Shown piece by piece: positions 37,381 through 39,469 of a DNA stretch of 64,000 nt. How positions within the stretch are numbered: the first letter of the stretch is position 1; the number at the start of each line of letters is the position of its first letter. The DNA comes from Moniliella sp. 'wahieum'. Its lineage: Eukaryota. The DNA lies in assembly GCA_003971905.1 (NCBI GenBank), contig RSEE01000043.1, positions 124,001 to 188,000 on the forward strand, given 5' to 3'. Made by a program: the position numbers and the translations under genes. Under the pieces are notes generated by a model. It was given only the letters and a program-made list of their open reading frames with translations. It had not been told where the DNA came from and made no database searches.

Positions 37381-37452
37381 TGTGACATGTGATGGACGTT
37401 GAACACGTTGAACGCGTATACCAGTGAGGCCTGAGGCCTGAGGCCTGAGGCC
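37381..37452. repeat. Mixed odd-palindrome array: TGTGACA, GTTGAAC x2 and (TGAGGCC)4
   Basis: TGTGACA at 37381, GTTGAAC at 37398 and 37407, four tandem TGAGGCC at 37425-37452. Confidence 0.95.
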
Positions 37453-38104
37453 GCTATACTAGAAGGATTCAGGCGCTGAGAAGCGTGAGTACCCGGAGGC
37501 CCAGGCCGATTCGGGTTCGGCTCAGCATGTGTGCTTAGGCGATGCAGATGCCAGCCAGAAGAGAGCCTGTTGGGGCTGCCACGTGGAAAGCTGTGACAAC
37601 CGTATTACAAAGTTCGAGGGCGTGCACTTTGGGTGTTCCACGTTTCAACTGCAGGAAAAAGGGTAGGGAACTGGAGGCTGGTGGGTCGCAAAATCAGAAT
37701 GAGGTCGATGCACGATGAGAGGGGGGGGGCTGTGGTCTTGCTGGAAGAGGTGTAACATGTGAGGCGGTGGGAGAAGTACGCCTATACTCGCCCCCCCAGA
37801 TGGCCTGAGGCCAGCGAGTGCGAGCAGCCAGGGTGGTTTACCAGGTGCCATCCACTTCGGCAACCCTATAGTTCTCAACAGCCTCAACTGACCGAGACCG
37901 AGTAGCTATTTGTCAGAAGGCAGTCTCCACGGCCCAAATGTGGGTGAGCCATGTGCGAGCGGTAGGGGATGCAGGGTGGATAGTGGATCGAGTCGCACTC
38001 GTCACGCCGCGCGCCTCGCCGATCGCACTCTCGTCACATGTCGGAAAGCCACACGGGCATGGGCATACTGTGGCGCGGTGAGCATGTGAGCCCGCTGTGT
38101 TAAA

Positions 38105-38642
38105 GTTCAACGACGTTGAACGTTGACATGTTGACATGTTGACGTTTGACACGCGACAGGGCACAGCGCATGAGACCCTACTGAACATTTGAACACTTGA
38201 TGGTCTGGCCAGGAGGCGGCATCCGCTCTGTGAGCCACGTGGCGCGTGACACGTGACTACGGACTGCTGACCAACCAGTGGCCGGTGCCGAGGGACGCGT
38301 GGTCATCGACGCGTGACGCGCGTGACGGTTCCGGTTCTCGTGCCTGGCCTGTCCTGCCGCAACCACCACCAGCCGGCCGCCGCAGCCGGCCGCGCCTGCC
38401 GCCCCCTGCCGGCCCTTGCCGCGGCCGAGTCACTGGCCACTAGCTAGTCAGCGCATCAGCCAAGGTTAGCTGCCACGCGGCCCACGTCAGCGCGTCAGCG
38501 TCAGTATCCAGCACGCAGTTAGCTGGTGCCTGTGGCGGGCTGACATTGACAGCCCCGCGCCTCCCCCGCCCCCCCCACCTTTCCAGCTGGGGCAATCCTT
38601 GCGGAGTGACTCTAGTGACTAGGGCGCGTGACGCGTGACGCG
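38105..38642. repeat. Cluster of TNA-centred palindromic heptamers
   Basis: GTTCAAC at 38105, GTTGAAC at 38115, (GTTGACAT)2 at 38122-38137, CGTGAC motifs at ~38246-38328, AGTGACT at 38605 and 38614, (CGTGACG)2 at 38627-38640. Confidence 0.85.
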
Positions 38643-39469
38643 AATCTGCAGGCACGCAGAACCCAACCCTACACTTGGTTTTGCTCCTCCTGCGGCCTGC
38701 CACCGCTTCAAATTTCAAAAGCGGCCGAAAGCGAAACCTTCCTTCACACTGCCCCCCGGCTGCGGCTGTCCAGCAGATGTGCTGGGAATGCCTGTTTCTC
38801 CCCAGGCTGCCTCTGGCCTGCCTCTGCCTGTCGCACGCAACGACGCCACATTATACTCAGTCCGCAGCCTGAGAAATCCACCACCATCCATCAACCATCG
38901 ATCATCCGTCCTTGCCGCCCGCTCTTTGCCCCACAGGCCTGCTGCTTCCCATGGGCCTGTCGGCCCTCCTCTCGGCATCCGCAAAGAGGGGTTGGACAAG
39001 CTATTGTTGTTCAACGTTCAAGTCTTTGTCGCCGTCGTATAAGCTGGTGCTATGCATAAGCGGTAACTAAGCGGCGAGTGGTACTAGGGCATGTGACGAC
39101 GCATGACGACGGGTGACACGCGTGACAGAGCACATATAGCCCCCCCCTTTTCTGATTGACTCATGCCGAGGACCCCCCCTCTTTCTTGAAGCGGATAATT
39201 GCTGGACAGGTGAACAGTTCCACTAAAACGTTTAACACTTCCACTCTTCACATCTTCACACAGAGTGGGAGTGGGAGGCATCTGGAGGCACTTCGCGAGG
39301 ACGTGATTTGCTGGCGCCGCGGGCATCGACATTATGTACAGAAACCGCTGCGTAGATCCCCTGGAAACTCTGCGAGCCTCGCGCCCTGTTTTCTTCGCGA
39401 CAAAAATCAACACTGGCTGGCACTCCCAAAGAAGAAATAGTTGGCAGCGCGCCCCTGGATGATCTGAGG

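Follow-up and report, generated by a model that had tools for sequence, protein, structure and literature searches.

The window analysed here, a 64,000-nucleotide stretch (C43:124001-188000) of a 69.5 Mb fungal assembly of 223 contigs, contains a non-coding region at positions 37381-39130 that is crowded with 7-bp odd palindromes centred on TNA. These heptamers are very probably scars left by the excision of a cut-and-paste DNA transposon of the CMC (EnSpm/Tnp2-like) type that has CTCACTG termini and a 7-bp target duplication. Two observations place them among transposon footprints. Palindromic (P) nucleotides templated by the flank stand at the joint, in one-sided +7, +8 and +9 forms far above three control classes, and an element with the matching duplication is found opposite a footprint at one orthologous site (C29 and C53). 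Contig C51 carries a second copy of the window region, differing from C43 by 3.1% substitutions over 206,277 aligned columns. Among named matches, the ribosomal protein L13 encoded in the window is nearest to Tilletia, Tilletiaria and Acaromyces proteins (68-69% identity), and we infer from sequence that the host fungus is a smut-related basidiomycete (Ustilaginomycotina).

Heptamers and the form of the scars

The initial annotation of this DNA described the region as filled with TNA-centred heptamers, and all seven of the examples that it quoted were recovered in place. With 100 dinucleotide shuffles as the null for heptamer counts, these palindromes are enriched in 37381-39130 (24 against 4.4±2.2 shuffled, z 8.8), and the suggested check on other centres found none of them enriched (ANT 4 against 5.1, CNG 7 against 11.3 and GNC 7 against 11.0 expected). 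The whole window holds 225 TNA heptamers against 182±12 shuffled (z 3.5). Nine of the ten other places named as having the same architecture contain 1-7 exact heptamers; 13375-13410 contains none, though a +9 form, as defined below, begins at 13413. Within 37381-39130, another TNA with a shared arm lies 7 or 9 bases from 16 of the 24 heptamers, and 8 are solitary.

When the target is written ab-TNA-XY, the scars take two one-sided +7 forms, right-arm (ab TNA XYY'X' TNA XY) and left-arm (ab TNA b'a'ab TNA XY), together with forms in which the entire 7-mer occurs twice with one (+8) or two (+9) inverted bases. In 284 kb of C43, the spacer of TNA-N4-TNA is a palindromic 4-mer in 251 of 653 cases, compared with 4.0-7.8% in 15 other xNy triplet classes, and spacers of 2, 6 and 8 between TNA pairs are palindromic seldom or at chance only. 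The palindromic 4-mer copies the right flank only in 77 of the 251, the left only in 64, both in 58 and neither in 52, and the two TNA have the same centre base in 205. Another 215 kb sampled from different contigs, partly cut around TNA-containing pattern matches and therefore not fully random, gave 267 palindromic spacers among 640. At non-palindromic sites with the same centre, the 284 kb contain 65 right-arm and 58 left-arm +7 scars, whereas plain 7-bp duplications at non-palindromic TNA sites number 14, equal to the ANT control (14). The +8 forms at non-palindromic sites count 19 and 16 (controls 0-8) and the +9 forms at all sites 20 and 16 (0 in three control classes). For spacers of 4, 5 and 6, the palindrome directly adjoins the duplication, as a flush joint, in 123, 32 and 36 cases, against 1-12 in controls.

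These results bear on several claims of the initial annotation. Its fixed T-N-A centre holds in that only TNA is affected, with N mostly S (G or C; 286 of 349 scars), and its fixed 7-bp period holds only in part, as 7-bp steps are accompanied by the +8 and +9 forms. Arms are interchangeable as it suggested, all 16 being used by scars with AG and TC foremost, and its placement of the pattern outside genes was borne out, with none of the 43 window scars inside the 11.8 kb of coding frames tested (12 of 13 with a Pfam match). A sequence-writing process with free arms, in the form of accumulated DNA-transposon footprints, is likewise supported. The 3-nt stagger and 3-bp TNA duplication that it proposed find no support: inverted bases copied from the TNA end occur at background level only, and the duplication itself is 7 bp. 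A microsatellite or transcription-factor motif, with enrichment limited to a few arms, was rejected, as no arm is fixed (16 of 16 used) and most long alleles in the comparison below are not tandem copies. The heptamer pattern can be explained without a chromatin or regulatory role.

The element with CTCACTG ends

An initial pattern search gave 412 matches, of which 30 were inspected without any common family emerging from them alone; a convergent pair in the list led to an element of 4,849 bp at C11 whose inverted ends are ~78 bp long (pattern search and inverted-repeat scan). Searches made without a TNA constraint located 19 element ends (CTCACTG..CAGTGAG) in the genome. Eighteen of these directly adjoin NN-TSA-NN and the 19th does so after an additional CT, where the base rate of TNA is 3.7% of positions. 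An exact 7-bp target duplication flanks five of the seven two-ended copies:

C23, gaTCAtg
C29 and C34, gtTGAtg
C35, caTCAac
C20, gaTGAtg (378-bp derivative)

A young repeat family (11 copies, 93-97%) with one exact end in common begins 55 bp from the C35 element (L124 from 5402).

Subterminal repeats are a feature of EnSpm/CACTA transposons, and the element has repeats of 11-bp period inside its ends. Its interior may also be of this type. The Tnp2 gene of C34 (PF02992) retrieved nine relatives, seven of them with PF02992, that are colinear with ~2,400-3,500 of the element (best E 2.5e-9, profile E 2e-10), although none of the 13 frames of the element has a Pfam match above cut-off. Neither a longer homologue nor a metagenome-contig relative of the element was found. 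EnSpm/CACTA elements have 5'-CA..TG-3' (CAC..GTG) termini and 2-5 bp target duplications (PMC12730594), whereas this element ends in CTCACTG..CAGTGAG and duplicates 7 bp; the CT/AG belong to the element because the empty site at C46 lacks them. Judged by sequence, the element appears to work like a CMC (EnSpm/Tnp2-like) member yet departs from the group in its termini and duplication length. It resembles CNIRT6 and CNEST, CMC/CMCT EnSpm/CACTA elements of Cryptococcus neoformans, in its putative Tnp2-like remnant and in terminal inverted repeats (TIRs) with subterminal tandem repeats, and it shares with CNIRT6 a CACTG motif near the end (PMC12810828, PMC12730594). Unlike CMC EnSpm/CACTA elements as presented in those sources, its ends begin CTC, two bases outside CACTG, and its target has a fixed TNA centre and a 7-bp duplication; the available portions of both papers describe no genome-wide stereotyped footprint for CMC elements.

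A genome search with a single protein returned eight matches, five in TIR elements and three in two Tnp2 genes without TIRs. The latter lie on C17 (557 kb, L054) and C34 (515 kb, L055), the C34 gene ~8 kb from a 4.9-kb element, and have no detectable inverted ends within ~10 kb; they are candidates for the transposase source or for host-retained genes. A scan of stretches of C43, C51, C17 and C34 for inverted repeats with flanking duplications gave no credible element.

The agent suggested initially was PIF/Harbinger, with its 3-bp TWA/TNA duplication. Footprints of this family, or of hAT7 with its 7-bp duplication, would suit the TNA centre, and hAT7 of rust fungi is, like the present element, a fungal DNA transposon with 7-bp duplications (PMC12730594). 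We nevertheless regard both origins as very improbable. PF13359 (PIF/Harbinger DDE_Tnp_4) has no match in the genome, an absence left unproven by a search whose control was positive in 1 of 14 genomes, and PIF/Harbinger mostly excises precisely (PMC4561436); the element that was found is Tnp2/EnSpm-like. For hAT, PF05699 (hAT dimerisation) has no match in the genome, which counts for little as its control matched nowhere, and the offset joints that characterize Ac/Ds-type (hAT) footprints (PMC5873905) number 5-11 per spacer length here, similar to control background. The specific model of a 3-bp TAA/TTA duplication with precise excision was rejected on the 7-bp duplication, the predominance of S at the centre and the background level of P bases from the TNA end. 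No MULE transposase was matched in the genome search.

Occupied, empty and scarred sites

Sites of the element are represented in three states. The occupied state is seen at C29, which reads gtTGAtg, element, gtTGAtg. Empty sites comprise C46, where caTCAac occurs once opposite the element of C35, and two further copies of the repeat that surrounds C20, each with gaTGAtg once. The scarred state is found at C53, orthologous to C29, which reads gt TGA TG CA TGA TG followed by the same flank; this is exactly the right-arm scar predicted from the target gtTGAtg. From the polymorphism rate, the chance of a copy-specific scar at a given TNA site would be ~0.4%, so that a scar at one of three informative sites is unlikely without a link to the element. 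The C23 and C38 sites are uninformative for this comparison, and no second copy of the C34 site was found in the assembly.

Differences between the two genome copies

The initial annotation had proposed alignment of orthologous intergenic regions between strains; the alignment here is of the two genome copies in the assembly. Clean indels between C43 and C51 (214 kb aligned) of sizes 5 to 9 number 26, 29, 36, 19 and 17, so that size 7 stands out modestly. When 10 or more of 12 flank columns had to match, 21 of 43 clean 7-bp indels fit the scar rule (controls 0, 0 and 1), as do 5 of 30 8-bp and 6 of 19 9-bp indels (controls 0-2). Scar-rule events amount to ~32 per 6,360 substitutions, or ~1 per 200, and the scar process is recent. 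The scar excess of ~0.8 per kb would extrapolate to tens of thousands per genome copy.

Arrays could also be produced by replication slippage or template switching at quasi-palindromes, with the products kept as transcription-factor sites (TGA half-sites). In 58 of the 251 motifs a palindromic heptamer is purely repeated in tandem, and exact tandem duplication accounts for several of the polymorphic indels. Scars also cluster: 45 of 137 have another scar no more than 100 bp away, against 13.7±4.8 for TNA sites chosen at random, though coding sites are among those controls and inflate the difference. It is probable that slippage extends arrays. As the origin of the scars it is largely refuted by the one-sided forms: in most scar-rule indels the short allele has no palindrome, nor homology for a switch, so tandem slippage cannot produce the long allele. 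Use of all 16 arms, restriction to TNA and the C29/C53 pair also stand against it, and we consider it quite improbable as the overall explanation.

The motifs were read from the assembly consensus, and 1-bp clean indels between C43 and C51 (1,257 in 214 kb) are many relative to the 3.1% substitutions. These are probably consensus errors, and frameshifts in the assembly call for caution. That the scars themselves are artefacts of assembly or sequencing is scarcely credible, as 16 of the 43 window scars have the same letters on two separate contigs and a further 11 are found there with other changes. Scars moreover avoid coding frames, and errors in base calling do not produce palindromes that are templated by the flank and confined to TNA.

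Proposed mechanism

The transposon inserts at ab-TNA-XY and duplicates all seven bases, as its flanks demonstrate; it later excises and leaves a site that heals with a stereotyped insertion, as one direct comparison and the scar statistics show. Each flank may be sealed as a flush hairpin at the duplication end and opened two bases from the tip, which would yield the 4-nt overhangs XYY'X' and b'a'ab. End joining would then mostly retain one overhang and lose the other, giving the observed +7 products, and less often both duplications would be kept with one or two inverted bases, giving +8 and +9. Each scar creates a palindromic heptamer and a second TNA target, and revisits, aided by slippage, could build arrays. 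At a palindromic target both one-sided +7 scars equal a tandem copy, which explains tandem arrays such as that at 37423-37452. Scars last only outside coding frames.

Hairpins on the flanks are documented in hAT, Transib, RAG and Muta1 excision, and it has been proposed that the host opens them and joins the ends (PMC5499845). Like hAT (Ac/Ds), Transib, Muta1 (MULE) and RAG, the present system heals the donor with short inverted copies of the flank (PMC5499845, PMC5873905). In Ac/Ds footprints the middle of the palindrome is the complement of the base next to the element, whereas the palindromes described here abut the intact duplication and are flush (PMC5873905). Muta1 excises precisely in >90% of events in yeast (PMC5499845, PMC5873905), unlike the unusually uniform and mostly +7 outcome here. 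Excision polymorphisms in rice (PMC4423477) were similarly resolved into insertion, empty and excised states from two related genomes, but were heterogeneous (8 of 94 perfect, with a mean of 18 bp lost and 13 bp of filler); here one short templated signature dominates and far exceeds the number of elements.

Certain observations weigh against excision of this element as the full account. A scar was seen at only one of three informative second-copy sites (C53), with C46 empty and C54 showing an adjacent deletion. The four element copies compared are 0.4-0.9% apart, closer than the genome copies at 3.1%. Insertion at C29 may therefore be younger than the split, and the scar at C53 may record a separate visit to a preferred target, or an exchange between alleles. 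Two of the seven two-ended copies have unlike flanks. At C11 the second copy has ~67 extra bases between the differing flanks, as expected for an adjacent deletion ending at another TNA target; the small C38 copy has flanks that are unlike but TNA-centred. Among the scars, 52 of the 251 palindromic spacers resemble neither flank, and the eight partnerless heptamers are about what chance (4.4) plus decay would give. The indels are unpolarised; some may be losses via 5-bp microhomology, and others are ordinary tandem duplications. The element's frames are broken, perhaps partly by consensus errors, and its catalytic core has no detectable N-terminal part; the single-protein genome search found no intact TIR-bound transposase. 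Present elements are few (19 ends against the estimated tens of thousands of scars) and their targets, rich in the TG arm, are narrower than the 16 arms of the scars, so other or extinct families, or cutting without cargo, may contribute scars.

Cutting without cargo could also be the whole process. A host-retained Tnp2 protein without TIRs, or an abortive transposase, would cut NN-TNA-NN with a 7-nt stagger, form hairpins and leave the ends to be joined, and most scars would never have held an element. This reading accommodates the two Tnp2 genes without detectable inverted ends (C17, C34), the large surplus of scars over elements and their wider arm usage. We judge it unlikely: an actual element with the required 7-bp duplication exists, C29 and C53 oppose element and scar, and the +9 class requires both 7-mers whole, the natural product of insertion followed by excision. 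The rate of ~1 event per 200 substitutions should also be attainable by a few hopping elements. A related proposal, to which we give a small but real chance, is that the C17 or C34 gene encodes a standing writer that cuts open promoter DNA at NN-TNA-NN, hairpins it and adds 7-9 templated bases, with scars seeding scars. If true, this would be a RAG-like junction-writing mutator acting across the entire non-coding genome.

Under the preferred reading of transposon excision, the scars form a very large natural footprint library that points to a flush flank hairpin opened two bases from its tip. To our knowledge, the way in which EnSpm/CACTA transposases carry out excision has yet to be established by biochemistry. 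A genome with a handful of elements may bear ~1 scar per kilobase, by extrapolation, and gain ~1 per 200 substitutions, so that past transposition could be traced even after the elements themselves have vanished. Most short repeats and motif-like words of these promoters would then be transposon scars, which motif finders would take for regulatory sites. Footprints with P-nucleotides are already known. An EnSpm-like lineage whose ends are atypical and whose 7-bp target is centred on TNA appears to be new: a literature search, mostly of open papers without supplements, found no described footprint grammar or lineage of this kind and no genome in which a single stereotyped footprint patterns the intergenic DNA. 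No look-alike stretches were found in the other genomes compared.

Scars and neighbouring features of the window

Scars and arrays in the intergenic region are as follows, with the state of the C51 copy ("second copy") where relevant.

37361..37374, +7 scar, right-arm (gt TCA GA TC TCA ga)
37381..37394, +7 scar, left-arm (TG TGA CA TG TGA tg)
37398..37413, +9 scar, two inverted bases separating two whole copies of the 7-mer
37423..37452, array: first a right-arm scar on agTGAgg, then CCTGAGG palindromic-target repeats
38105..38150, compound array on target gtTGAca, one left-arm +7 plus +8 scars; shorter in C51
38312..38327, +9 scar on cgTGAcg, within a 95-bp segment missing from the second copy
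38485..38499, +8 scar on cgTCAgc; not in the second copy
38605..38620, +9 scar on agTGAct; in both copies
38627..38642, palindromic target CGTGACG with a +7 repeat; one more unit, of +9 type, in the second copy
38706..38719, +7 scar, right-arm (ct TCA AA TT TCA aa); in both copies
39009..39022, +7 scar, left-arm (GT TCA AC GT TCA ag); in both copies
39246..39260, +8 scar on ctTCAca, slightly beyond the 37381-39130 interval

Others in the window include:

1595..1608, +7 right-arm scar, this copy only
12344..12357, +7 right-arm scar with TTA centre, this copy only
13242..13255, +7 right-arm scar, this copy only
13992..14018, CTTCAAG array
55471..55505, CTTGAAG array including a +9 unit

An 861-bp single-copy segment (36568-37428) with four scars is missing from C51, and its right end lies inside the CCTGAGG array. 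Four short frames crossing the heptamer stretch are broken by indels in the C51 copy, and an Rfam scan of 34500-41500 gave no match. The intergenic region is bounded by two genes:

32676..34427, - strand, Myb-domain protein gene (part) with three repeats, on the left
39606..40001, + strand, gene for a 131-amino-acid protein with hydrophobic N-terminus and no Pfam or PDB match, on the right

Large indels between the copies are mostly deletions, one long terminal repeat (LTR)-type insert, or pieces of another dispersed repeat. At 49474/49475 the C51 copy is 1,033 bases longer (L011 4108-5140) and apparently holds most of a small intron-bearing gene of which the window retains only the end; we presume a likeness of this gene to cytochrome bc1 subunit 8, for which Pfam gave no support. 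About 41 kb of C43 (240447-281807; L021-L025) have no counterpart at the corresponding point of C51. The LTR-type insert (L020 5098-6485), only in C43, is 1,388 bp long with 240-bp direct terminal repeats (TG...CA) and a 5-6 bp duplication, and is a small non-autonomous LTR element. The dispersed repeat (L032 6265-8559, L052 4431-4586, L038 1630-1996 and window 41015-41468) has a common end with the other end cut, and a 9-bp duplication at one copy; it looks like a non-LTR retroelement. An inverted pair of ~110 bp, 10 kb apart (L025 5063-5168 and L036 5337-5447), occurs in both copies and has the appearance of two putative tRNA genes. Long poly-G runs lie in non-coding DNA of the window at 5711-5727, 13035-13049 and 61330-61345.
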